A DNA stretch of 36,250 nt, taken from IMG/VR virus record IMGVR_UViG_2870490042_000002; one strand, written 5' to 3'. Made by a program: the position numbers and the translations under genes. The stretch is from a virus. Lineage: Duplodnaviria > Heunggongvirae > Uroviricota > Caudoviricetes. The notes beneath the pieces were generated by a model, which had not been told where the DNA came from, did not search any database, and saw nothing but the letters and a program-made list of their open reading frames with translations. Within the stretch, counting starts at the first letter, position 1. The number at the start of each line of letters is the position of its first letter. Below, one piece after another: positions 471 through 36,250 of this stretch.

Positions 471-499
471 ATGCATAAAAAAATAAGCCCGTGTAAGGG
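471..499. repeat. attL core: direct repeat of the cyaR 3' end (AAAAAATAAGCCCGTGTAAGGG)
   Basis: 22-bp exact repeat at 478-499 and 34718-34739, preceded by ATGCA in both copies. Matches the P2 att core as recalled. Two TGTGGACA arm-type repeats lie at 593-610 on the int side. Confidence 0.6.
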
Positions 500-583
500 C
501 GTTTATATACCCTTACAACAGGGGCTTTCAGCGGTGCAATGCGGGTTTGCGCGGCACGCAAGACCACTGAAAGCCATAATAAA

Positions 584-3662: not shown

Positions 3663-5943
3663 GACTCGGGGGCGTATTGCCCCCTCGCTAGCCCTGCCAA
3701 TATCTAAGCGCACCGGCGATACTTTCGTTGGTGCTTATCCCTGGAATGCTCCCCGCGCTGCCATTGGCCGTGACAGACCCCTTACACGTGCCGAATTCCG
3801 TCAGGTGCAAGGTGTTTTATACCGGATTGACCGCCTGCCTTTCTTTCTTAAGACGTTGTTTACTTCCCGTTATAACTTCATTCGTCGCACAAAGAGCCCG
3901 CTCGGGGCGCTCTATTTCCTGAAAAACACCTTTGAGCGGAAGCTGTTGCCGCGTCTTGAGCGCGTTAACGAGCTGTGCGGGATGAATGAATCTGCGTCGA
4001 TTGGTTTCTTGTCTGAGCGTGACGAATATGCGCGCTTGCCTGATATGAATGACAAAGAGCTGAAAAAATTTGCGGCCAGAATTGCCGCGCAGCTCTGGCG
4101 TAAATACGAGGAACTCAGCGACGAATGGGCTGAGGCATTCGGCGGTAAAGAGACCCTTTTCACCGATGAGGCGCAGGTGCACATATATGGTCAGGTGGCT
4201 GGTGTTGCACGCGCGTTCAACTTAACCCCGCTCTACTGGAAAAAATACCGTAAGGGTCAGATAACGATCCGCATGGCGTTTTCCGCTATTTCCCGTCTGA
4301 TAAAAGATGATTGGTGGGTTAACCAGCTCAAGGCGCAGCGTATGCGCTGGCGCGAGGCGCTGCTTATCGCTGCCGGTGAAGTCAACAAAGACCGTTCACC
4401 TTACGCCAGCAAAATGGCGATCCGCGAGGTTCACTCGCGCCGGCTGGCTAATCTCGAATACCTGAAATCCTGTGAGCTGGAAAACAAAGTTACCGGCGAA
4501 CGTATCGACCTCATCAGTAAAGTCATGGGGAGTATTTCAAACCCTGAAATACGCCGTATGGAGCTGATGAACACCATTGCCGGAATTGAACGCTATGCGG
4601 CCAGCGTTGGTGATGTGGGAATGTTTATCACGCTGACCACGCCGTCGAAGTATCACCCGACCCGACAGGTCGGCAAAGGTGACAGCAAAACGGTGCAGCT
4701 CAATCACGGCTGGAACGAAACCGCATTCACCCCTAAAAACGGCCAGCGCTATCTGTGCCGAATCTGGAGCCTGATGCGTACCGCTTTCAAAGATAACGAT
4801 TTGGAAGTGTATGGGATGCGCGTTGTCGAGCCGCACCACGACGGCACGCCACACTGGCATATGATGCTTTTTTGCAAACTCAGTCAGCGTAAAGCTATCA
4901 ACGAAATTATGCGTCGTTATGCCCTCAAAGAGGACGGACGCGAAAAGGGCGCGGCAAAACAGCGCTTTGAGTCGCGTCACCTTAATCAGGGGGGCGCGGC
5001 GGGTTATATCGCCAAATACATTGCCAAAAATATCGACGGCTACGCGCTTGACGGTCAGCTCGATCACGATACCGGCAAATCTCTGAAAGATACGGCCGCA
5101 GCCGTAACCGCATGGGCGTCTACATGGCGTATCCCTCAGTTTAAACCGATTGGCCTCCCGACAATGGGCGCTTACCGCGAACTGCGTAAGCTGCCGCGCG
5201 GGGTGAGTATCGCCAGCGAGTTTGACGACCGTGTCGAGGCCGTCCGGGCTGCTGCAGATGAGGGGGAATTTGACCTGTACATCAGCGCGCAGGGTGGGGC
5301 AAACATGCAGCGTGATGCTCAGGCGGTCAGGGTCGCCCGTAAGGTGACGGATGAGGTAAACGAATACGAGGAGGATATCGAGAAAGTGGTCGGTATTTAT
5401 GCCCCTCATCTTGGGGTGAGCCGCGTACATGTAACCCGTACAGCGGAATGGCGCATAGTTCCAAAGGTTTTGGCCGTTGAGCCTTTGACCTTAAAAAGCG
5501 GCTTTGCCGCGCCTCGGAGTCCTGTCAATAACTGTGGAAAGCTTGCCGACGGTGGCGATCCAGTTATGACACCTACACCGTCTGAGCAAGCCGCAGCGGT
5601 GTTAAATTTGATTGAGGCCGGGGTTATCGGCTGGAATGAGCCAGACGTCATGAAGGTTCTTAACGGCGCGTTAAAAGCTGGCGCACCTCGCAATAATCGC
5701 CAGCAAAGAAGCAATGCGCCACTCAAAACGAGCGAGCAAGCTCCATCAGCCAGGATGACAAAACCAGAAAGGGATCGCGTGGCGAAAATTCGTTTCGATT
5801 TGGCTCAGGAGGGCATTACCCCGGAACGGTGGGCGCTCGAAGCGCTGGCGCGTGGGGCAACGGTGATTTATGGCGATAAAAAAATCAAATACGCGGCTGC
5901 TGATGAGTGGCCGGGATTCTCAATTCAAGAGGAGCAGAATTAA
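3652..5943 (+). CDS. A: Rolling-circle replication initiator endonuclease, P2 gpA-like (763 aa)
   Basis: ORF 3571..5943 trimmed to MAVETRGR (P2 A starts MAVKASGR as recalled). Long colinear blocks include EPHHDGTPHWHMM and GGAAGYIAKYIAKNIDGY. Confidence 0.9.
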   Translation: MAVETRGRIAPSLALPISKRTGDTFVGAYPWNAPRAAIGRDRPLTRAEFRQVQGVLYRIDRLPFFLKTLFTSRYNFIRRTKSPLGALYFLKNTFERKLLPRLERVNELCGMNESASIGFLSERDEYARLPDMNDKELKKFAARIAAQLWRKYEELSDEWAEAFGGKETLFTDEAQVHIYGQVAGVARAFNLTPLYWKKYRKGQITIRMAFSAISRLIKDDWWVNQLKAQRMRWREALLIAAGEVNKDRSPYASKMAIREVHSRRLANLEYLKSCELENKVTGERIDLISKVMGSISNPEIRRMELMNTIAGIERYAASVGDVGMFITLTTPSKYHPTRQVGKGDSKTVQLNHGWNETAFTPKNGQRYLCRIWSLMRTAFKDNDLEVYGMRVVEPHHDGTPHWHMMLFCKLSQRKAINEIMRRYALKEDGREKGAAKQRFESRHLNQGGAAGYIAKYIAKNIDGYALDGQLDHDTGKSLKDTAAAVTAWASTWRIPQFKPIGLPTMGAYRELRKLPRGVSIASEFDDRVEAVRAAADEGEFDLYISAQGGANMQRDAQAVRVARKVTDEVNEYEEDIEKVVGIYAPHLGVSRVHVTRTAEWRIVPKVLAVEPLTLKSGFAAPRSPVNNCGKLADGGDPVMTPTPSEQAAAVLNLIEAGVIGWNEPDVMKVLNGALKAGAPRNNRQQRSNAPLKTSEQAPSARMTKPERDRVAKIRFDLAQEGITPERWALEALARGATVIYGDKKIKYAAADEWPGFSIQEEQN

Positions 5944-6401
5944 TGAGCAAAATCCATGAGTTAAAAATTGCACCTGAGTATTTTAACTCTGTGATATCTC
6001 AGGAAAAACGTGCTGAATTTCGTCTCAATGACCGCGATTATTCTAGCGGTGATATTCTCGGGTTGCATGAATGGGAACCGGTAAACAGATATACCGGGAA
6101 ACGTGTATCAGTGAGGGTGACAAACGTTACGGATTTATCTGAATGGGCGGAAAATTATGTGATGCTGAGTTTTCAGTTAATGATGCCAGATGTCCAGTGC
6201 GGTATGTCCCTAATGAACTGGAAAGAGTTAAGCGAGAAGGGGCTTGTTTTCAGAGTTAATCACGAAATTCTACACCCGTTAGGGCTGGCTATTAGATATG
6301 AAACACTTAACAGCGTTTCTGGTAGGGCTTACATCGCTGATGATGGTGTCTGGCAATATTCCGACAAGTTGGTCGCAGATGCTAAAAAAATGGGTGGTTA
6401 A
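5943..6401 (+). CDS. DUF3850/ASCH-like (PUA-fold) protein with an about 80-aa C-terminal extension
   Basis: ATG at 5943 overlaps the gene A stop (TAATG). N-terminus MSKIHELKIAPEYFNSVISQEKRAEFRLNDRDYSSGDILGL matches the DUF3850 pattern as recalled. Confidence 0.6.
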   Translation: MSKIHELKIAPEYFNSVISQEKRAEFRLNDRDYSSGDILGLHEWEPVNRYTGKRVSVRVTNVTDLSEWAENYVMLSFQLMMPDVQCGMSLMNWKELSEKGLVFRVNHEILHPLGLAIRYETLNSVSGRAYIADDGVWQYSDKLVADAKKMGG

Positions 6402-6924: not shown

Positions 6925-6943
6925 GGCGAGGCGGGGTAAGCAT
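6925..6943. other. cos site (19-nt cohesive-end sequence GGCGAGGCGGGGTAAGCAT)
   Basis: 17 of 19 identity to the P2 cohesive end GGCGAGGCGGGGAAAGCAC as recalled. Located on the Q side of the packaging genes. Confidence 0.6.
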
Positions 6944-7014
6944 TGCGCGCGCCTGTCAAAGATATTAAGATTGTCTCAAAATCGATTGATTTTATTGAAC
7001 TAATGGAGCTAGGA

Positions 7015-8571
7015 ATGATTAAGGGTATAGGTCTTCAAAACTTCAGGAGCTTTGTCAACAAAACGTTTATTGATTTAAAACCAATTACAGTATTTGTTGG
7101 TAAGAACAGCAGTGGTAAAAGTTCCCTATTGCGCACATTTCCTTTACTTCGTCAATCTGTAGAAGAAAATACTACTGGCCCAATACTATGGTATGGGAGA
7201 TATGTGGATTTTGGCGATTTTACAGATGTACTTTCCCGAAAGTCTGAAAAAAAAGAAATTACGTTTAGTTTTTCACTCTCAATTCCGCCAGAGGTTTCAC
7301 AAAGATATACATATTATCGTTCTACTGATTTAGCAAAGCAACCAACAGATATTGAAGCAGAGTTAACTGTTTACTCTAAAGATAAAAAAACAAAAACGAA
7401 AACGATTAAGCTTATATTGGCTGATTTAACAATATTTATTTCAATGGATGAGAGTAGTAATGTTAAATTACTCATTGAATCAGATGATAAAACAATAGAG
7501 CGTGATGGGATAATAGCTAAAAATCTTGGGCAGTTCATACCAAATCTAATTTTGAAGGGTAAGGAAGACAGTCCTCCTCCAAGCACATCATTCTATTTGA
7601 GACATTCTAGGCATGACAGGGCGTTAGAATTGTCATTTATTGATTCAGCGGCGAAATATATAAAGAAATATTTCCATACTAAATCTGATATAAATCAAGT
7701 GACAGAGGCATTCAAAAGAATTGGCTTTATACCCAAAGCGTACGCTAGTAAATTAGTTGCTTTTCTATTTAAGGAACAAAAAGTTTTTAGTAGAAACTTT
7801 GAATTTCAACATGATGAAATAATGAATGAGTTATATCCATTTATAATTGGATGGAATATTAATAATCTTATAGATATAATAAATACATCCTTGTCAGATT
7901 CATTCAGAAATGTAAAGTACATAGCTCCACTGCGTGCTACATCAGAAAGATTTTATCGTTTTCAAGATTTACAGGTTAATGAGATAGATCATACTGGTTC
8001 CAATCTTGCAATGCTTTTGAATTCATTAAGACCGGCTGATAAATCAAAATTTGAAGATTGGACAAAGTTAAATTTTGATTTCATTATCAAGGTTGAACAA
8101 AGTGGCTCTCACTTTGCAATTTTAATAAATACCGGTGAAAATAGTGAGAACTATAATGTTAGTGATATGGGGTTTGGTTATTCTCAGGTTTTGCCGATAG
8201 TTACAGCCATTTGGCTTGAGACAGAACGTCGTGCTACCACGGTTAGAAAACCTATAACATTTATCATTGAGCAGCCAGAATTGCATTTACATCCGTCATA
8301 TCAGCATAATTTAGCAAGTATTTTTGCAAAAGTAGTAACTAAAGCAAAAGAAAATAATGTAGATTTGAAGATAATTTTTGAGACACATAGCCAGACCATG
8401 ATTGAAGCACTTGGTGAATATATTGAGGAAAATGAAAGTCTTTCACAGGATGATATTTCAATACTGGTATTTGAAAAAGATGATAAGCAGCAGACTATAG
8501 TTAAGAAATCTTATTTTGACGAGAATGGTTTCCTAAAAAATTGGCCGGTTGGCTTTTTCTCGGGTAAGTAG
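7015..8571 (+). CDS. ABC/OLD-type ATPase (AAA_15/AAA_21-like), AriA-like candidate
   Basis: ORF 6943..8571 trimmed to ATG 7015 (RBS GGAG at 7004-7007; the longer ORF would run through cos). Walker A VFVGKNSSGKSS, Walker B-like FIIEQPELHLHP, H-loop FETHS. AT-rich. Confidence 0.8.
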   Translation: MIKGIGLQNFRSFVNKTFIDLKPITVFVGKNSSGKSSLLRTFPLLRQSVEENTTGPILWYGRYVDFGDFTDVLSRKSEKKEITFSFSLSIPPEVSQRYTYYRSTDLAKQPTDIEAELTVYSKDKKTKTKTIKLILADLTIFISMDESSNVKLLIESDDKTIERDGIIAKNLGQFIPNLILKGKEDSPPPSTSFYLRHSRHDRALELSFIDSAAKYIKKYFHTKSDINQVTEAFKRIGFIPKAYASKLVAFLFKEQKVFSRNFEFQHDEIMNELYPFIIGWNINNLIDIINTSLSDSFRNVKYIAPLRATSERFYRFQDLQVNEIDHTGSNLAMLLNSLRPADKSKFEDWTKLNFDFIIKVEQSGSHFAILINTGENSENYNVSDMGFGYSQVLPIVTAIWLETERRATTVRKPITFIIEQPELHLHPSYQHNLASIFAKVVTKAKENNVDLKIIFETHSQTMIEALGEYIEENESLSQDDISILVFEKDDKQQTIVKKSYFDENGFLKNWPVGFFSGK

Positions 8572-8573
8572 TT

Positions 8574-9686
8574 ATGTTGATTAATATCGAAAATGCGACA
8601 CCTGAGAAGGTGCTAAATAACTCATTTGCCATAGCGGTTGAAAATATACTTCGGGCATTCGCTGAACAAAAACACTTGGTTATAGGGGCAAGGGTTTTTT
8701 TTAAAACTATTATCAATGATCAAAGCGGGCTTTATAGCCTTTCATCAAAAAGTTACGCGCAAGAGGCTTTGTCGGGTCTAACAGAGTACTATGCTATCTT
8801 GGATCAGGTCTCATTTTATGTATCTGTCGACTTTAATATTAGTGATAAATCATTTAAATGGGTTCAGATCGGTGAATCTTTTAAATTTGTTTGTGGTCCA
8901 TTGTATTTTAATGACTCGGCACAATTGCAAAAAACGAAAATAGTATGTGAAAATCCTTTGGATTCTGATTTTTTTAAGGTTATAGCGGCTCATTATGCCG
9001 AAGGTATTAACTTATCTCGCTGCGAAATGGGTTTTATCGCTCTAAATGGCGGTGGGGGCAGTACTAAGGATATATTCGAGCGTGCAATTCAAAATAATGA
9101 GATAGTTTTTTGTATTGTGGATAATGACAAAAAACATCCTGGAGCCCCATTCGGAGGTACTTGCTCACATTTTTTGGGCTCACAAATTACTCGCTCAGGT
9201 TTCGTGGAGATTTTAGATGTACATGAAATAGAATCTCTAGTTCCTTTATCGACAATTGAAGATGTATTAAGAAGTCAAAGTCAATTGCAACAAAAAGAAA
9301 AATCTCTCATTTTCTTTAAGCATCTTTGCTCCGTAGATGAATCAGTAAAATTTTATATTGACCATAAAAAAGGTTTTGATTTTAAAACAGCCCTTGAACT
9401 CGATCGAAAACATGGTGCATATTGGCGTCCGATATTAAAGAAGCTTGATATAAAATATGATTGTGAGTATATCGAATCAAAACGTTGTAGCTGCAACGCT
9501 GCTTGTGTAAGTTATGATGGTTTTGGAGAGAATTTGCTCAGCAATACATTGAAATATATACAAAAGGGAAGTTTAAAAAAATATAATCCTCACCTAACAC
9601 CAGTGCTTTCTGATAAATGGTATAAGTTAGGTAAGAATTTCTTTAGTTGGAGTTGTGGTCCATATAAAAAAGCAAGGGTTGGTTAA
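8574..9686 (+). CDS. Partner protein of the ATPase (370 aa), possible Toprim/DUF4435-like nuclease (AriB-like), unconfirmed
   Basis: Starts 2 nt after the ATPase stop, so co-operonic. Contains hydrophobic-E (AIAVEN) and a DxD-type motif (IVFCIVDNDKKH). No HNH or other clear fold recognised by eye. Confidence 0.7.
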   Translation: MLINIENATPEKVLNNSFAIAVENILRAFAEQKHLVIGARVFFKTIINDQSGLYSLSSKSYAQEALSGLTEYYAILDQVSFYVSVDFNISDKSFKWVQIGESFKFVCGPLYFNDSAQLQKTKIVCENPLDSDFFKVIAAHYAEGINLSRCEMGFIALNGGGGSTKDIFERAIQNNEIVFCIVDNDKKHPGAPFGGTCSHFLGSQITRSGFVEILDVHEIESLVPLSTIEDVLRSQSQLQQKEKSLIFFKHLCSVDESVKFYIDHKKGFDFKTALELDRKHGAYWRPILKKLDIKYDCEYIESKRCSCNAACVSYDGFGENLLSNTLKYIQKGSLKKYNPHLTPVLSDKWYKLGKNFFSWSCGPYKKARVG

Positions 9687-18541: not shown

Positions 18542-19591
18542 ATGTCTAACGATGATAAAACATTGAATTTATTCCCCATAGATTATCCATTTGAGACTTT
18601 ATGTTCTAGGATGAAGTCCAATCCCATCAAACTAAAACTGAATCCAGACTTTCAAAGAAAGTACAAATGGGATCAGGACGGATGGCTGCGATCTTCAAAA
18701 TTCATTGAATCTTGTTTAATGCGTATTCCTCTTCCATCTTGTTACTTTGCAGAAGATGATAGCGGCAATCATATTGTAATTGATGGTGTTCAGCGATTAA
18801 CCACAATACAGAAATTTTTTGATGACGAGTTCGCTTTGGAGGGAATGACTACATTTAAAGAGCTTGAAGGGAAAAAGTTTTCTGAATTAGGATCTCTACG
18901 TTCAGAGTTAGAGTCGACAACAATAAGATGCATTGTTCTAAGAAAAGAAAATCCCAAAAAATTAATAAGAGAGATATTTTCTAGACTCAATCAGGGGGCA
19001 GTTAAACTTTCTGATCAAGAAATAAGACATGCGTTATATCCGGGAGGGTTTGATGAATTATTAGAAGAGTTAGGTAATATTGATGCCATTAAAAATTTTG
19101 GTTTGGCGGAAACAACTACAGTAAAAAGAGATAGTCGTGAGCCAGACGAACAAGTTTTGCGTTTTTTTGCATTTTATGAAGATAACTTTTTTGATTACTT
19201 TGATAGCTCCTTGAAAGAATTCTTGGATGATCATATGGAAAAATTTTCAGACTTAAAAGATGATGAACTGAATATTATGAGGGAGAGATTCAAAACATCA
19301 TTATCTAAGTGTGAAAAAATATTTGGTGAAGATGTATTTACAAACCCTACAGTTAGGAGAAAACGTAAAGGGTTAGTTCATTATGACATTTTAATGCCTA
19401 CAATTGGCAAGTTAAATGATGATATTGTAAATGAAAAGTCCGAACAAATACGGAATGCTTGGTTTACTCTTTGTTCAAGTGCTGAGTTCAAAAAAACTTT
19501 ATCAGGTGGGCTACAGAATAAGAGTTCGGTGATGAAGCGTAGGGCTAGTTGGGTGGCACTTCTTAAGGAAGTTATTGATGGAAAATACTGA
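18542..19591 (+). CDS. DUF262 (ParB/Srx-like nuclease/NTPase fold) protein, 349 aa
   Basis: Hallmark N-terminal block FQRKYKWDQDGWLRSSKFIESCLMRIPLPSCYF...IVIDGVQRLTTIQKFF (DGQQR-type motif). No DUF1524/HNH tail recognised. AT-rich. Confidence 0.8.
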   Translation: MSNDDKTLNLFPIDYPFETLCSRMKSNPIKLKLNPDFQRKYKWDQDGWLRSSKFIESCLMRIPLPSCYFAEDDSGNHIVIDGVQRLTTIQKFFDDEFALEGMTTFKELEGKKFSELGSLRSELESTTIRCIVLRKENPKKLIREIFSRLNQGAVKLSDQEIRHALYPGGFDELLEELGNIDAIKNFGLAETTTVKRDSREPDEQVLRFFAFYEDNFFDYFDSSLKEFLDDHMEKFSDLKDDELNIMRERFKTSLSKCEKIFGEDVFTNPTVRRKRKGLVHYDILMPTIGKLNDDIVNEKSEQIRNAWFTLCSSAEFKKTLSGGLQNKSSVMKRRASWVALLKEVIDGKY

Positions 19592-20156
19592 ATACTATGA
19601 TGGATATCGTTCATTATTTTTATCCTTAAAAGAAATTATTAAGGAGACGGAGCAACAGGCTATCCTTGAGGAAAATGAATTCTTCAATAAGAACATTAAT
19701 TTTTTTGTTAAATCGTATCTTATTACACTCTGCACTTATTTAGAGTCGTATTTGACTGAGGTTGCAACATGGCACTGCGATACCATCAATCGCAGGCTCA
19801 AAGCAGCCTGCTTGCCACACAATTTTTTGCTTTGGCGAGTCAAAAAAGATGTTAAAGATAAGGAGTTGAAATATATAGATGCTGATTTAAAGGTTGAGAA
19901 AAGTGAGGTGTCGGATAGCCTGTCTGGTAATCCTTACAAGACGATTAAGGCATTTTCTTATTTGGGTGTTAATCTTTTGAATTCGGCGGAATTTAATGCG
20001 AATAAGGATGTTGTGAATGCAGTGGTTGTAAAGAGAAATAACATTATTCATCATAACGACAATGCAAATGATATTAGTCTCACTGACGTAAGTGGTTATG
20101 TAGATCTGTTTGTATCCTATATGGCTGCGATAGATAATATGGTTTGTGGAAAATAA
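19578..20156 (+). CDS. HEPN-like protein with Rx4H motif (candidate RNase), 192 aa
   Basis: ATG at 19578 has RBS AAGGAAG and overlaps the upstream gene by 14 nt. Candidate catalytic motif in VVVKRNNIIHHNDN (R-x4-H). Family assignment from memory of HEPN-like families, unverified. Confidence 0.65.
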   Translation: MENTEYYDGYRSLFLSLKEIIKETEQQAILEENEFFNKNINFFVKSYLITLCTYLESYLTEVATWHCDTINRRLKAACLPHNFLLWRVKKDVKDKELKYIDADLKVEKSEVSDSLSGNPYKTIKAFSYLGVNLLNSAEFNANKDVVNAVVVKRNNIIHHNDNANDISLTDVSGYVDLFVSYMAAIDNMVCGK

Positions 20157-31573: not shown

Positions 31574-31653
31574 CGGCGTGTGTTGTTTATGTGTTTGTTT
31601 TATAAGTAAAAATTAGTAAAATTAACACATTGAATACGCCGGAGACCCTCATC

Positions 31654-31875
31654 ATGTTTCATTGTCCGAAATGCCATCATGCCGCCCACGCCCGCACGAG
31701 TCGCTATTTTACTGATACCACAAAAGAGCGGTATCACCAGTGCACAAACATTAACTGCAGCTGCACGTTTGTGACCACTGAAACAGTCGAGCGTTTTATC
31801 GTGTCGCCGGGGGAAGTAGTACCCGCGCCGCCGCATCCGACATCATCAGGTCAGCAACAAATTCACTGGATGTGA
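31654..31875 (+). CDS. ogr: Late gene transcriptional activator Ogr (zinc finger), 73 aa
   Basis: ORF 31630..31875 trimmed to MFHCPKCHHAAHARTSRYFTDTTKERYHQCTNINCSCTF. Cys-x2-Cys...Cys-x4-Cys zinc finger as in P2 Ogr. Confidence 0.85.
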   Translation: MFHCPKCHHAAHARTSRYFTDTTKERYHQCTNINCSCTFVTTETVERFIVSPGEVVPAPPHPTSSGQQQIHWM

Positions 31876-31942
31876 CAAACGAGAAAGCCCCGCGATGTAC
31901 TGCACCCATTTTGTTGGACGATGAAATGGAATAGCCCCTAAT

Positions 31943-32464
31943 ATGTCAAAGCCAAAATACCCTTTTGAAAAGCGCCTTGAAGTCGTGAATCACTACTTCA
32001 CAACTGATGATGGTTACAGGATCATCTCGGCACGTTTTGGTGTCCCCCGAACCCAGGTCAGGACATGGGTTGCCCTCTATGAAAAACATGGAGAAAAAGG
32101 TTTAATTCCCAAACCTAAAGGCGTTAGTGCTGATCCAGAGTTGCGTATTAAGGTCGTGAAAGCTGTGATCGAGCAGCACATGTCCCTTAATCAGGCTGCT
32201 GCTCACTTTATGCTTGCTGGTAGTGGTTCTGTAGCCAGGTGGCTGAAGGTCTATGAAGAGCGCGGAGAAGCTGGTTTACGCGCGCTCAAGATTGGCACCA
32301 AAAGAAACATTGCAATATCAGTTGATCCAGAAAAAGCGGCATCAGCATTGGAGCTGTCAAAAGACCGACGCATTGAGGATCTTGAAAGGCAAGTTCGATT
32401 TCTTGAAACGCGGCTTATGTATCTAAAAAAGCTGAAAGCCTTAGCTCATCCCACGAAAAAGTGA
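31943..32464 (+). CDS. insJ: IS150 OrfA (InsJ, 173 aa, HTH)
   Basis: MSKPKYPFEKRLEVVNHYFTTDDGYRIISARFGVPRTQVRTWV. IS3-family OrfA with C-terminal leucine zipper. Confidence 0.85.
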   Translation: MSKPKYPFEKRLEVVNHYFTTDDGYRIISARFGVPRTQVRTWVALYEKHGEKGLIPKPKGVSADPELRIKVVKAVIEQHMSLNQAAAHFMLAGSGSVARWLKVYEERGEAGLRALKIGTKRNIAISVDPEKAASALELSKDRRIEDLERQVRFLETRLMYLKKLKALAHPTKK

Positions 32465-33312
32465 AAGTACTCAACGAGCTAAGGCAGTTTTATCCTCTTG
32501 ATGAGCTTCTCAGGGCTGCGGAGATACCGCGCAGTACGTTTTATTATCATCTAAAGGCTCTCAGCAAGCCTGACAAGTATGCGGACGTTAAAAAGCGTAT
32601 TAGTGAGATTTATCACGAGAATAGAGGCCGATACGGATACCGTAGGGTAACGCTGTCTCTTCATCGAGAAGGGAAACAGATTAACCATAAAGCTGTTCAG
32701 CGCCTGATGGGAACCCTCTCACTTAAAGCAGCGATTAAGGTCAAGCGATACCGCTCTTACAGAGGAGAGGTAGGGCAAACCGCCCCTAATGTTCTCCAAA
32801 GAGATTTCAAGGCTACGCGGCCAAACGAGAAGTGGGTTACCGATGTTACTGAATTTGCAGTCAATGGGCGCAAGCTGTATTTGTCTCCAGTAATAGATCT
32901 CTTCAACAACGAAGTTATTTCTTACAGCCTTTCGGAAAGACCAGTGATGAACATGGTTGAGAATATGCTCGATCAGGCATTCAAAAAGCTTAATCCTCAC
33001 GAGCATCCTGTTCTGCACTCTGACCAGGGATGGCAGTATCGTATGAGAAGATATCAAAATATCCTTAAAGAACATGGTATTAAACAAAGCATGTCCAGAA
33101 AAGGCAATTGTCTGGATAATGCTGTGGTGGAGTGTTTCTTTGGAACCTTAAAGTCGGAGTGTTTTTATCTTGATGAGTTCAGTAATATAAGCGAACTGAA
33201 GGATGCTGTTACGGAATATATTGAATACTACAACAGCAGAAGAATTAGCCTGAAATTAAAAGGTCTGACTCCAATTGAATATCGGAATCAGACCTATATG
33301 CCTCGTGTTTAA
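32461..33312 (+). CDS. insK: IS150 OrfB (InsK, DDE transposase catalytic domain)
   Basis: 283-aa ORF in the -1 frame relative to OrfA, GTG start at 32461. IS3-family DDE transposase core. Confidence 0.85.
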
Positions 33313-33627
33313 CTGTCCAACTTTTTGGGGTCAGTACACGAATGCGGGGCTTTTTGCAACTTTTAGATCAGTTATGTTAAGTACATTTCCGTCGGCAAAG
33401 TGCCAGGAGCGGGTTCTAGAGAGTGACTAACGTTAGTTATATGTGTAAAATTCCTTAAAAATAAGAAGGATATATATCCATGACAGCAATTGCATATTGG
33501 ATTAACTGAGAATCAATTGAGAAATTTTTGGGGGGGCAAAAAATAAACTAGCTAATTAAATTTTTATAAATAACGAATATAAGACTGCAAGCCATTTAAC
33601 AAAAGTTTATAAATAAAGGAGTCAGTT

Positions 33628-34479
33628 TTGAACAATATCCCCATATCTACTCAATGGACTTTAGACGCTACGGGTGAAGTTGGACGCTCATCAGTAAATT
33701 CTGTTTATATGATTATATGTCCTGCGACCGGCTCGAAAGGATCTGGTTTTTTAATAGATAATGGGTTAATAGTAACGAACGAGCATGTTATCACTGGATG
33801 CTCTACAAATCAGATTTTCGCAATTTCAGCTTATGGACAGAAGATTCCAATTTCTCAAAAATGGATAGATTCTGATCGCGATTTAGCTGTGCTGAGACCT
33901 GCCATTACCCAGACTGGTGGGCTAAGTATTGTTAAGGATAATGATCTTAAAGTTGGTGAATCAGTAACAACTTGGGGATACCCATTAGGATACAACGGTC
34001 CTGCACCGTTACTATCCGTTGGTTATCTAGCAGGATTTAACTCATACCAAACCGCCAAGGGACAAAAAAAACATCTAGTGGTAAATGGGGCATTTAACTC
34101 AGGAAATTCTGGTGGAGCTCTTTTAAAAGCTTCAGATAATAAAGTAATAGGTATTGTAGTGAGTAAGCATGCTCCTATCAGTCAATACCATCAATCAGCT
34201 ATTGAAGCTTTGTCTGAAAATATGAGTGGCGTCACCTATACCGCTACTAATGACGCTGGAGAAACTAAAAGTTTTGTAGAATCTCAAATTGTAGCAGAAT
34301 TATTGATTCATATGAGAAGTCTAACTCAAGTTATGATTGGAGAAGCAATTGCAGCAGAGGAATTACTTTCGATGCTTAGCGAAATTGACTTGAGTCCACC
34401 ACAATCTATGTCAAGAAATGCCTTATGTCATTGCGGGAGTGGAAAACGCTTCAAAGAATGTCATGGAAAGATATCCTAG
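33628..34479 (+). CDS. Trypsin-like (S1) serine protease with C-terminal SEC-C zinc-binding motif; cargo gene
   Basis: TTG start with RBS AAGGAG 5 nt upstream. Triad candidates His in VTNEHV, Asp in DLAVL, Ser in GNSGGAL. C-terminal CHCGSGKRFKECHG. No signal peptide. AT-rich. Confidence 0.75.
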   Translation: MNNIPISTQWTLDATGEVGRSSVNSVYMIICPATGSKGSGFLIDNGLIVTNEHVITGCSTNQIFAISAYGQKIPISQKWIDSDRDLAVLRPAITQTGGLSIVKDNDLKVGESVTTWGYPLGYNGPAPLLSVGYLAGFNSYQTAKGQKKHLVVNGAFNSGNSGGALLKASDNKVIGIVVSKHAPISQYHQSAIEALSENMSGVTYTATNDAGETKSFVESQIVAELLIHMRSLTQVMIGEAIAAEELLSMLSEIDLSPPQSMSRNALCHCGSGKRFKECHGKIS

Positions 34480-34628
34480 TAAGTACTTATATCAGTCTGA
34501 TAATGGCTCTTCAAATACAAAAGACTTCACTTACTCTGCCGTCATCTCTGCTCCTCGCTTATTGCAGACGGTCAAAAGCTTACAAGCTGTTGACTAGATG
34601 TGTTCTTACATTGTCAGTTAAAACAAAA

Positions 34629-34651
34629 GCCCCGCAAATGCGGGGCTTTTT
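34629..34651 (+). terminator. Rho-independent terminator after the protease cargo gene
   Basis: GCCCCGC-aaat-GCGGGGC followed by TTTTT. Near-identical to the terminator after ogr that is split by IS150. Confidence 0.55.
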
Positions 34652-34712
34652 GTATCGATGTGGTCAATGTGTGGACATTGATAGAAATAAATCCATTTAT
34701 TTCAGTAATTTA

Positions 34713-34739
34713 CATGCAAAAAATAAGCCCGTGTAAGGG
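34713..34739. repeat. attR core (22-bp direct repeat of attL core plus ATGCA), also the 3' end of cyaR
   Basis: Exact repeat of 478-499. Preceded by TGTGGACA (34668-34675) and TATCGATGTGGTCAATG arm sequence. Confidence 0.6.
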
Positions 34740-34804
34740 AGATTACACAGGCTAAGGAGGTGGTTCCTGGTACAGCTAGCATTTTATGGGTTATGTTTTT
34801 CAGC
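34718..34804 (-). ncRNA. cyaR: CyaR (RyeE) Hfq-dependent sRNA, 87 nt
   Basis: Reverse complement reads GCUGAAAAACAUAACCCAUAAAAUGCUAGCUGUACCAGGAACCACCUCCUUAGCCUGUGUAAUCUCCCUUACACGGGCUUAUUUUUU, matching E. coli CyaR as recalled, with terminator hairpin and U-tail. Confidence 0.75.
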
Positions 34805-34888
34805 GAAACGGATGATAACCTTAATAAATGCAGCTGTATGTGATCGGTTTCTAAGAATTTTCCATCCGGGAAAAATAATCGAAATTAA

Positions 34889-36250
34889 TCACTTACCGTG
34901 TGGGTTACGCGTGGTTTCCCCGGAGAAATTACGCATCAGCAGAGCGTAATTGAGCTCAAGATCCTGCGGGACCGGGAGCCACACAGTATAACCATCGCCT
35001 GGTGCGACCGGCATCGCTTCACCTTTGGCGTTTTCCATGTGCTCAAGGGTAAAGTTAATGTTGCCTTGCGGCGTCATCAGCTCAAGGCTGTCGCCAACGG
35101 AGAATTTATTTTTCACCGCTACCGCCGCGAGGTCCCCCTTGCGCTCACCGGTAAACTCACCAACAAACTGCTGGCGGTCAGAAACTGAATAACCGTATTC
35201 GTAGTTCTGATAATCGTCGTGAGTATGACGACGCAGGAAACCTTCGGTATAGCCACGATGCGCCAGACCTTCCAGAGTTTCCAGCAGGCTGGTATCGAAC
35301 GGTTTGCCCGCAGCGGCGTCATCGATAGCTTTACGGTAAACCTGTGCGGTGCGTGCGCAATAGTAGAAAGATTTAGTACGGCCTTCGATTTTCAGCGAAT
35401 GCACGCCCATTTTGGTCAGGCGTTCTACATGGGCGATGGCGCGCAGATCTTTCGAGTTCATGATGTAAGTGCCGTGCTCATCTTCAAACGCGGTCATATA
35501 CTCGCCCGGACGCTGGGCTTCTTCGATCATAAACACTTTGTCGGTTGGCGCGCCGATACCCAGCGTCGGCTCAACATTTTGCACCGGAATCGGCTCGTAC
35601 TTGTGTACGATGTTGCCAACGTCATCTTCTTTCCCTTCCTGGACGTTGTACTCCCAGCGGCAGGCGTTGGTGCAGGTACCCTGGTTCGGATCGCGCTTGT
35701 TGATATAGCCAGAGAGCAGGCAGCGACCGGAGTAGGCCATGCACAGTGCGCCGTGAACGAAGATCTCGATCTCCATATCCGGCACCTGATTGCGGATCTC
35801 TTCAATCTCTTCCAGCGACAGCTCGCGAGAGAGGATCACGCGGGTCAGGCCCATTTGCTGCCAGAATTTCACCGTCGCCCAGTTTACGGCGTTAGCCTGC
35901 ACCGAGAGGTGGATCGGCATTTCAGGGAAGTGCTCACGCACCAGCATAATCAGCCCTGGATCGGACATAATCAGCGCATCCGGCCCCATTTCCACCACCG
36001 GTTTCAGGTCACGGATAAAGGTTTTCAGCTTGGCGTTGTGCGGTGCAATGTTGACCACGACATAAAACTTTTTCCCCAGCGCGTGGGCTTCATTGATGCC
36101 GAGCTGAAGATTTTCGTGGTTGAATTCGTTGTTGCGCACACGCAGGGAGTAACGCGGCTGGCCCGCATAAACAGCATCTGCGCCATAAGCGAAAGCGTAA
36201 CGCATATTTTTCAGCGTTCCCGCCGGGGAAAGGAGTTCCGGTTTAAACAT
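34889..36250 (-). CDS. yegQ: U32-family peptidase-like protein YegQ (tRNA hydroxylation protein), 453 aa; host gene
   Basis: Full-length ORF ending at the window edge; MFKPELLSPAGTLKNMRYAFAYGADAVYAGQPRYSLRVRNNEF. Sequence and position next to cyaR match E. coli yegQ as recalled. Confidence 0.85.
   Translation of the reverse strand: MFKPELLSPAGTLKNMRYAFAYGADAVYAGQPRYSLRVRNNEFNHENLQLGINEAHALGKKFYVVVNIAPHNAKLKTFIRDLKPVVEMGPDALIMSDPGLIMLVREHFPEMPIHLSVQANAVNWATVKFWQQMGLTRVILSRELSLEEIEEIRNQVPDMEIEIFVHGALCMAYSGRCLLSGYINKRDPNQGTCTNACRWEYNVQEGKEDDVGNIVHKYEPIPVQNVEPTLGIGAPTDKVFMIEEAQRPGEYMTAFEDEHGTYIMNSKDLRAIAHVERLTKMGVHSLKIEGRTKSFYYCARTAQVYRKAIDDAAAGKPFDTSLLETLEGLAHRGYTEGFLRRHTHDDYQNYEYGYSVSDRQQFVGEFTGERKGDLAAVAVKNKFSVGDSLELMTPQGNINFTLEHMENAKGEAMPVAPGDGYTVWLPVPQDLELNYALLMRNFSGETTRNPHGK

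Follow-up and report, generated by a model that had tools for sequence, protein, structure and literature searches.

A predicted cytoplasmic HtrA-type serine protease with a SecA-like zinc-binding tail is single-gene cargo in the ogr-attR slot of a P2-like Escherichia coli prophage

The window analyzed here, a 36,250-nt stretch of viral DNA (IMG/VR record IMGVR_UViG_2870490042_000002, Caudoviricetes), is identified by its sequence as an E. coli prophage of the P2-like type, with yegR (1-318) on one side and CyaR/yegQ on the other. Between the late activator gene ogr and the right attachment site, attR, lies a low-GC module for a single protein, predicted to be an active, cytoplasmic, PDZ-less serine protease of the HtrA type and ending in a SecA-type metal-binding (SEC-C) motif. 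This module is a moron, a self-contained accessory cassette in the ogr-attR slot of one P2-like lineage. For the protease we propose, at a probability of about 0.4, a conflict function expressed in the lysogen, namely phage exclusion or abortive infection by regulated proteolysis. The features of the module, numbered by position in the window, are listed below.

33339-34717, plus strand: low-GC cargo module (moron), with the ogr terminator on its left and the P arm of attR on its right
33405-33627, plus strand: AT-rich region upstream of the gene and mobile together with it (presumed promoter and 5' untranslated region)
33628-34479, plus strand: TTG-initiated gene for the 283-aa protease, annotated in RefSeq (WP_001059829.1) as 'trypsin-like peptidase domain-containing protein'
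33703-34383, plus strand: HtrA-type chymotrypsin-fold protease domain, aa 26-252 (AlphaFold2 model, Foldseek, HMMER)
33784-86, 33880-82 and 34108-10, plus strand: catalytic codons for H53, D85 and S161, respectively
34414-34476, plus strand: SEC-C tail, predicted ligands C267, C269, C278 and H279
34625-34655, plus strand: second copy of the terminator hairpin with its T-run, closing the module (hairpin 34625-34650)

A first-pass annotation, made by a model from the sequence alone, had described the product as an S1 protease that stays in the cytoplasm, and both points were supported. Pfam recognizes Trypsin_2 (1e-19, aa 38-176) and Trypsin (5e-8). In a HMMER alignment, H53 (TNEHV), D85 (DRDLAVL) and S161 (GNSGG) fall on the catalytic residues of DegQ, and all three are invariant across 60 homologues, down to 51% identity. 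A confident AlphaFold2 model built from the alignment of these homologues (pLDDT 85.7, pTM 0.79) starts with a helix (aa 6-25) and continues as a two-barrel protease domain containing an insert specific to the family (aa 186-232), which forms a helix-hairpin-helix; another helix and a short knuckle make up the C-terminus. Against the PDB, Foldseek returned HtrA-type protease domains only, at E values of ∼1e-11: plant Deg1, DegQ, DegP, DegS, MucD and Rv3671c/MarP of Mycobacterium tuberculosis. No hydrophobic segment or signal peptide is present at the N-terminus.

The best matches in both sequence and fold are thus the HtrA/DegP/DegQ/DegS proteins and MarP (MEROPS S1C), with which our protein has in common the chymotrypsin fold, the His-Asp-Ser triad and the GNSGG oxyanion motif. 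It differs from them in lacking the PDZ domain, the signal peptide and the membrane anchor, and identity is only ∼20%. Neither Pfam nor NCBIfam detects a PDZ domain, nothing but a helix and the zinc knuckle follows the protease domain in the model, and every score against the NCBIfam HtrA, DegP and DegS models is far below the cut-off. Hence the protein has an HtrA-like protease domain but is not a canonical HtrA: it shows the fold, triad and GNSGG motif of S1C, whereas the PDZ domain and the extracytoplasmic location are missing. The N-terminal helix, the insert and the SecA-type tail are specific to its family.

The gene was proposed to be a TTG-initiated open reading frame (ORF) with a strong ribosome-binding site in an AT-rich island, and we agree. 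GC content is 0.33–0.40 over ∼33250-34900, compared to 0.55–0.63 in the late genes of the phage, and a Shine-Dalgarno sequence, AAGGAG (33616-33621), is located 6 nt upstream of the TTG. In an alignment, the TTG and this element are retained in four independent genomic contexts. Initiation at the downstream ATG (M28) was ruled out, as residues 1–27 are conserved, even where a signal peptide precedes them.

The C-terminal SEC-C motif claimed for the protein is confirmed by profile and by alignment to solved structures. The Pfam match covers aa 263–281 (3.6e-7; 30.4 bits versus a cut-off of 20.4), with the motif itself, CHCGSGKRFKECHG, at aa 267–280. The final 22 residues, RNALCHCGSGKRFKECHGKI, align position by position with the zinc-binding domain of E. 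coli SecA (1TM6, 1SX0), and the tail also aligns with the Haemophilus influenzae SecA peptide crystallized with SecB (1OZB) and with the C-terminal peptide of YchJ (9L6B); E values for 1TM6, 1SX0 and 1OZB range from 4e-6 to 3e-5. The tail has the characters of PF02810, i.e. the CxCx8C[H/C] ligands, the serine of GSG, flanking basic and aromatic residues, and placement at the C-terminus. The pattern RNxxCxCGSGK[KR][FY]KxCHG at the extreme C-terminus is shared with SecA, YecA/AscA and YchJ. Here the domain is joined to a protease instead of a translocase ATPase or a chaperone. The metal-binding domains of SecA and YecA/AscA coordinate Zn or Fe and bind SecB and ribosomes (bioRxiv 10.1101/613315; bioRxiv 10.1101/2020.07.21.215244). 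By analogy, the tail would most likely dock the protease onto SecB and/or the ribosome. SecB is a largely proteobacterial chaperone, which would fit with the restriction of the SEC-C tail to Gammaproteobacteria described below.

The slot in which the gene lies is variable. In related P2-like prophages at the yegQ/CyaR site (L046, L047) it is empty, with the ogr stop codon followed by the terminator, which is joined directly to the P-arm sequence GTATCGATGTGGTCAATG and the core, ∼105 nt in total. It is also empty in P2-like prophages at the pflB site. Elsewhere the same junction holds other cargo: an ORF of 109 aa (L037), 63 aa (L042) or 86 aa (EC11), three small ORFs (L048), or an EAL-domain protein (L054). 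In two loci, the cargo is a group II intron plus a 69-aa ORF (L015 6244-8846; L181, from E. coli KV7, 4080-6265). The intron encodes a reverse transcriptase and maturase and is interrupted in KV7. Retroelements are known to target terminators, and their presence here indicates that the terminator-proximal slot attracts retroelements too. With the slot empty or otherwise filled in related prophages, the protease gene is not a core gene and the slot is a variable moron site. The view of the gene as non-core, single-gene cargo therefore stands, and tblastn found no match to it in 50,697 phage records. A tblastn search of 72,556 plasmids was likewise negative.

The first-pass annotation had also given the gene a terminator of its own. 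A hairpin does close the module (ΔG −20.8 kcal/mol, z −4.2), but it turns out to be a second copy of the ogr terminator. The module is thus flanked by two copies of this hairpin, as are the other cargoes in L037 and L042. Bracketing of the inserts by duplicate hairpins suggests that cassettes are swapped via recombination between conserved flanks. Only one credible ORF is found in the module. The upstream terminator and the co-travelling upstream region are consistent with an independent transcription unit.

Among 5426 complete E. coli genomes, 34 contain the protease cargo, and exactly the same 34 contain the D-ogr variant of this prophage (at least 99% identity); the cargo is tied to one P2-like phage lineage. 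Strain names among the carriers include NDM isolates, CRE isolates and strain '167'.

In position, variability and deviant base composition, the module belongs with prophage morons and the cargo of P2-like hotspots. P2-like phages carry low-GC, variable, independently terminated cargo between core genes (PMC9122126; PMC13586616; bioRxiv 10.1101/2024.10.15.618418), with hotspots listed at A-Q, att-int, int-A and the tail genes (PMC13586616). The style of cargo is the same here, but the slot differs, with the ogr terminator immediately ahead of it and the P arm behind. The three P2-cargo reports (PMC9122126; PMC13586616; bioRxiv 10.1101/2024.10.15.618418) neither single out the ogr-attR slot nor list cargo of the present type.

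Placement of the gene between the ogr terminator and the att arm, as first described, is correct with respect to the slot. It overlooked an insertion sequence, IS150, which now separates ogr from the cargo:

31630-31875, plus strand: ogr (ORF), late transcription activator and last core gene before the cargo slot
31876-31895, plus strand: 5' half of the ogr terminator hairpin, severed by IS150 (comparison with the uninterrupted L001)
31896-33338, plus strand: IS150 (IS3 family), 1443 bp, with orfA at 31943-32464 and orfB at 32461-33312
33339-33357, plus strand: 3' half of the first (ogr) terminator hairpin, with its T-run

In L001 and L002, ogr is annotated as a DNA-binding transcriptional regulator beside the D gene, and relatives of Ogr were found in 592 viral contigs. 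IS150 split the ogr terminator hairpin at its loop, leaving a 3-bp target duplication, CGA (31893-95 and 33339-41), so that 33339 is the first base past the element. The intact terminator folds at −21.5 kcal/mol (z −5.4). In the 34 complete E. coli genomes with the same prophage and module, the order is ogr, intact terminator, cargo, and IS150 is absent at this position from all of them, suggesting that the insertion is recent or strain-specific. In 2864 E. coli genomes, annotated copies of IS150 match the element at 99.9% identity. Its insertion may change how far transcription reads through or how strongly the protease gene is expressed.

Other mobile elements carry close homologues as solitary cargo (65–90% identity, SEC-C tail present where it can be detected). 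The Klebsiella copy is in a lambdoid prophage, beside the end of the tail-fibre region and adjoining umuDC and a TIR-domain gene. Copies in Vibrio parahaemolyticus occupy putative superintegron cassettes, within same-strand arrays of short ORFs with repeated ∼30-aa spacer ORFs, and Zeta-toxin and Abi_alpha cassettes are found nearby. In Yersinia, the gene lies in a P22-like prophage between lysis and replication genes, on the strand opposite to the flanking phage genes. Another copy is at the end of a Mu-like prophage, the Pseudoalteromonas copy adjoins an integron-integrase fragment, and that of Pseudidiomarina adjoins a retron-type RT-Toprim gene. Wherever its context was examined, the SEC-C clade occupies either a cargo position of a mobile element or a defence-like island.

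Nucleotide homology extends over 33405-34518 between the E. coli and Klebsiella copies and over 33550-34572 between the E. coli and Mu-like copies. From these extents, the mobile unit is the ORF plus 80–220 nt upstream and 40–90 nt downstream. All-versus-all clustering of the three neighbours on either side in 80 loci revealed no conserved partner gene; the only recurrent neighbour was an integron-integrase-like (IntI-like) gene, in 5 loci. On these comparisons, mobility as a single gene is well documented.

The wider family is small and distinct, as judged from a phmmer search of 1.84 billion representatives, which gave 140 clusters under a strict threshold (E ≤ 1e-30) and 344 under a looser one (E ≤ 1e-10), amid 13,541 weaker matches (E ≤ 0.001). 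Counting one genome per species, 104 of 185,579 species have a member, with a patchy distribution across Gammaproteobacteria, Acidobacteriota, Chloroflexota, Planctomycetota, Chlamydiota, bacteria of the candidate phyla radiation and several archaea. A distant member lies between genes for Cas1 and a family-B DNA polymerase (PolB) on a 700-kb metagenomic contig (L011 6196-13453), an arrangement that looks like a casposon with the protease as cargo. Other distant members are beside an IS91-type transposase, in an archaeal-type integrated element, or next to an integrase. Among full-length relatives from species-representative genomes, SEC-C occurs in 3 of 67, all from Gammaproteobacteria, and some other cytoplasmic members end in TPR repeats. 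Exported relatives have ∼25–35 extra residues ahead of the same conserved helix and never have SEC-C. Since the cytoplasmic relatives exchange one C-terminal module for another (SEC-C, TPR, none), the termini appear to act as swappable modules for localization or targeting. The SEC-C form is a derived gammaproteobacterial clade on mobile elements.

Comparison with defence libraries gave domain-level matches for both parts of the protein. The best PADLOC matches of the protease domain are defence effectors, i.e. RT-Protease_XI (7e-21), PDC-M35A, LmuA and HamA variants, and the SEC-C tail matches PADLOC models of CBASS E2 proteins, which have the motif at their C-terminus. A SEC-C motif is also present in the lactococcal defence protein Rugutis. 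PHROGs yielded only families labelled unknown or 'protease', all NCBIfam scores stayed far under their cut-offs, and a viral structure library yielded only generic trypsin-fold matches. The first-pass annotation had suggested a role in lysogenic conversion, defence or anti-defence; no model in PADLOC, PHROGs or NCBIfam gives the protein a function.

Cytoplasmic trypsin-fold domains on mobile or defence loci are also found in type XI retrons, the Lamassu LmuA protease, the trypsin-MBL proteins of Hachiman and Avs, gasdermin-activating proteases and Canu nuclease-protease pairs. These proteases are fused to or sit beside a sensor, usually together with a pro-effector substrate, whereas the protein described here is solitary. 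Assignment to one of the known systems was considered and rejected in each case. For a type XI retron, which joins a reverse transcriptase domain to the protease and has an msr/msd RNA, the PADLOC match spans only the protease part of the profile (334–495 of 506), no RVT domain is present, and CyaR is the sole Rfam match in the window. The single credible ORF and the lack of a conserved neighbour in the 80 loci argue against a trypsin-MBL, Canu or gasdermin module, in which a pro-effector gene (MBL hydrolase, nuclease or gasdermin) and an upstream sensor (Hachiman, Avs or NLR) accompany the protease. IetAS is excluded because the fold is trypsin-like rather than that of a subtilase and there is no AAA ATPase partner. 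The closest functional analogue of the mechanism we propose is Lit, a single-gene protease borne by the e14 prophage, although Lit is a zinc metalloprotease with no sequence or fold kinship to our protein. Lit acts on the translation apparatus, causing abortive infection by proteolysis when activated by the Gol peptide of T4 bound to EF-Tu.

Four circumstantial lines thus point to a conflict role: the mobile contexts, the likeness to effectors in PADLOC, the occurrence of SEC-C in CBASS E2 proteins and Rugutis, and the defence-like nature of the cargo in the two classical hotspots of the prophage (see below). The conserved TTG start agrees with a dose-sensitive product. HtrA proteases are allosterically latent and act on unfolded chains. 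We envision that the protease would be expressed in the lysogen and tethered by its SecA-type zinc finger to SecB and/or the ribosome, where it would cut nascent or chaperone-held unfolded polypeptides. Such proteolysis could exclude or abort other phages, much as Lit or the trypsin-like effectors of retron XI, Lamassu, Hachiman and Avs do, except that, unlike in these four systems, targeting would be supplied by the C-terminal adaptor of a stand-alone protein.

A bolder version, which we consider doubtful, would make the protein a new type of anti-phage system consisting of one protein. A latent HtrA-like protease, kept at SecB or at the exit site of the ribosome by its zinc finger, a mimic of that of SecA, would destroy nascent or chaperone-held proteins, possibly SecB-dependent outer-membrane receptors or the exported or early proteins of an invader. 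Its core would be retargeted across lineages by swapping SEC-C, TPR repeats or a signal peptide.

Several observations weigh against a conflict role. PADLOC gave no full-length model match, only matches to the protease domain or the motif. No sensor domain or partner that could keep a stand-alone protease latent is evident. Promoter-like hexamers upstream of the gene (6) are not above the chance expectation from shuffled sequence (4.9). N-termini resembling signal peptides are present in 41 of the 67 full-length relatives and absent from 26, arguing that the protease core is neither intrinsically cytoplasmic nor an intrinsically cytoplasmic immune effector. The 132 neighbours of cytoplasmic relatives, classified by Pfam and PADLOC without a background baseline, are a heterogeneous set, mostly ordinary housekeeping genes, with mobile-element genes and a few defence genes. 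The protein is not mentioned in the literature covered (searches with the RefSeq accession and with SEC-C, trypsin and defence; integron-cassette screens; Rousset 2022; Vassallo 2022; DefensePredictor; metagenomic selections).

Some of these observations would be accommodated if the protein were a proteostasis or fitness factor, a cytoplasmic quality-control protease that removes, at SecB or the ribosome, secretory precursors that are mislocalized or stalled and thereby helps the lysogen under envelope or secretion stress, with no direct role against phages. HtrA proteins are the classical quality-control proteases for unfolded proteins. The closest folds are DegP, DegQ and DegS, the SecA-type tail points to the machinery of secretion targeting, and most relatives are exported, many of them encoded among housekeeping genes. 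However, the SEC-C clade was found only at mobile cargo positions (at the ends of prophages, in putative integron cassettes and on an island beside a retron-type reverse transcriptase gene), and rarity, both in E. coli (34/5426 genomes) and across species (104/185,579), is atypical of a generally useful housekeeping function. We regard a proteostasis role as somewhat doubtful. More clearly unlikely, in our view, is a selfish addiction or toxin module that stabilizes its element, with restraint provided within the molecule (N-terminal helix, insert, tail) or by a host factor. It is true that toxin-antitoxin genes are common in integron arrays and at prophage ends, that the weak TTG start is conserved, and that IetS of IetAS is a precedent for a protease toxin. 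Yet no antitoxin-like partner or conserved small ORF accompanies the gene, homology stops 40–90 nt past the stop codon, and 34 genomes stably maintain an intact copy with no partner beside it.

Could the protease instead serve the phage itself, either in counter-defence, by degrading host immune proteins, or as a lytic helper? The gene points the same way as ogr and the late genes. IS150 has wrecked the upstream terminator in the window, and in intact copies read-through from ogr is conceivable. The distribution tells a different story: the gene is absent from the 50,697 deposited phage genomes and from most P2-like prophages, occurs in putative integron arrays, beside an IS91-type transposase and in a casposon-like element, all of which have no lytic cycle, and runs opposite to the flanking phage genes in Yersinia. 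Together with the upstream terminator and co-travelling DNA, which fit an independent transcription unit, these data make a phage-serving role quite unlikely. Least probable of all is a protease exported from the cytoplasm to act in lysogenic conversion, its SEC-C tail exploiting SecB and SecA for non-classical delivery. The tail is a Sec-pathway motif and exported relatives are numerous (41/67), but this protein has no hydrophobic N-terminal segment, and SEC-C is never combined with the additional N-terminal residues of the exported forms. Moreover, a folded zinc finger is no Sec export signal.

The prophage frame is defined by the following features:

478-504, plus strand: attL core, 2 mismatches
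34656-34717, plus strand: P arm of attR, retained in P2-like prophages at the yegQ/CyaR site (L037, L042, L046, L047)
34718-34744, plus strand: attR core, exact P2 core AAAAAATAAGCCCGTGTAAGGGAGATT, overlapping the 3' end of CyaR
34721-34806, minus strand: CyaR
34889-36250: yegQ/trhP

Cores on both sides place the protease gene inside the prophage and rule out a location beyond its end. The attR core corresponds to the 3' end and terminator of the CyaR small RNA gene, and integration rebuilds this terminator from phage sequence. A 20-nt copy of the P arm (TTCTATCGATGTGGTCAATG) is found in the host flank to the left of attL, ∼35 nt before the core (425-504 versus 34650-34744), so the unoccupied host site seems to keep a remnant of an older P2-like right end. 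The yegR-to-core sequence with this copy is conserved in >5300 E. coli genomes. Just outside the prophage, between yegQ and yegP, a ParDE-type toxin-antitoxin pair is inserted in some strains of E. coli (L002 7015-7609; L182 6481-7075) but not in AR_0137, a natural lysogen.

The prophage also has, in both of its classical hotspots, gene pairs that resemble defence systems. One, in the A-Q (tin/old) hotspot (6943-9686), encodes a 542-aa AAA_15/AAA_21+DUF3696 ATPase (PADLOC: NsnB 6.5e-55, PDC-M55A 7e-46, AriA 3e-31), followed by a partner of 370 aa without a Pfam domain and with a weak PDC-M55B match; it is probably an NsnB/AriA-like two-gene defence system. The other, between the tail-completion gene S and the baseplate gene V (18542-20156; the P2 orf30 position), consists of a GmrSD_N/DUF262 protein (NsnA 6.6e-80, PD-T4-2_A 9.5e-43) and, after it, a 193-aa RiboL-PSP HEPN protein, and looks like a PD-T4-2-like system. 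Replication gene A is immediately followed by a gene for a 164-aa DUF3850/ASCH + DUF7415 protein (5907-6401).

Prophage morons and trypsin-like effector proteases are already known kinds; the combination of domains described here is uncharacterized. Trypsin-like proteases increasingly turn out to be common among the effectors of bacterial immunity, always within multi-component systems, and our literature search found no described defence system that uses the SecB/ribosome targeting machinery. If the proposed role is true, a stand-alone, SecA-tailed protease would link mobile-element conflict to the machinery of co-translational targeting (SecB, ribosome). A second outcome is the precise definition of a cargo slot in P2-like phages: insertions lie directly after the ogr terminator with the hairpin duplicated, and the slot could be mined for more accessory genes. 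The prophage lineage that carries the protease is found in clinically relevant E. coli.

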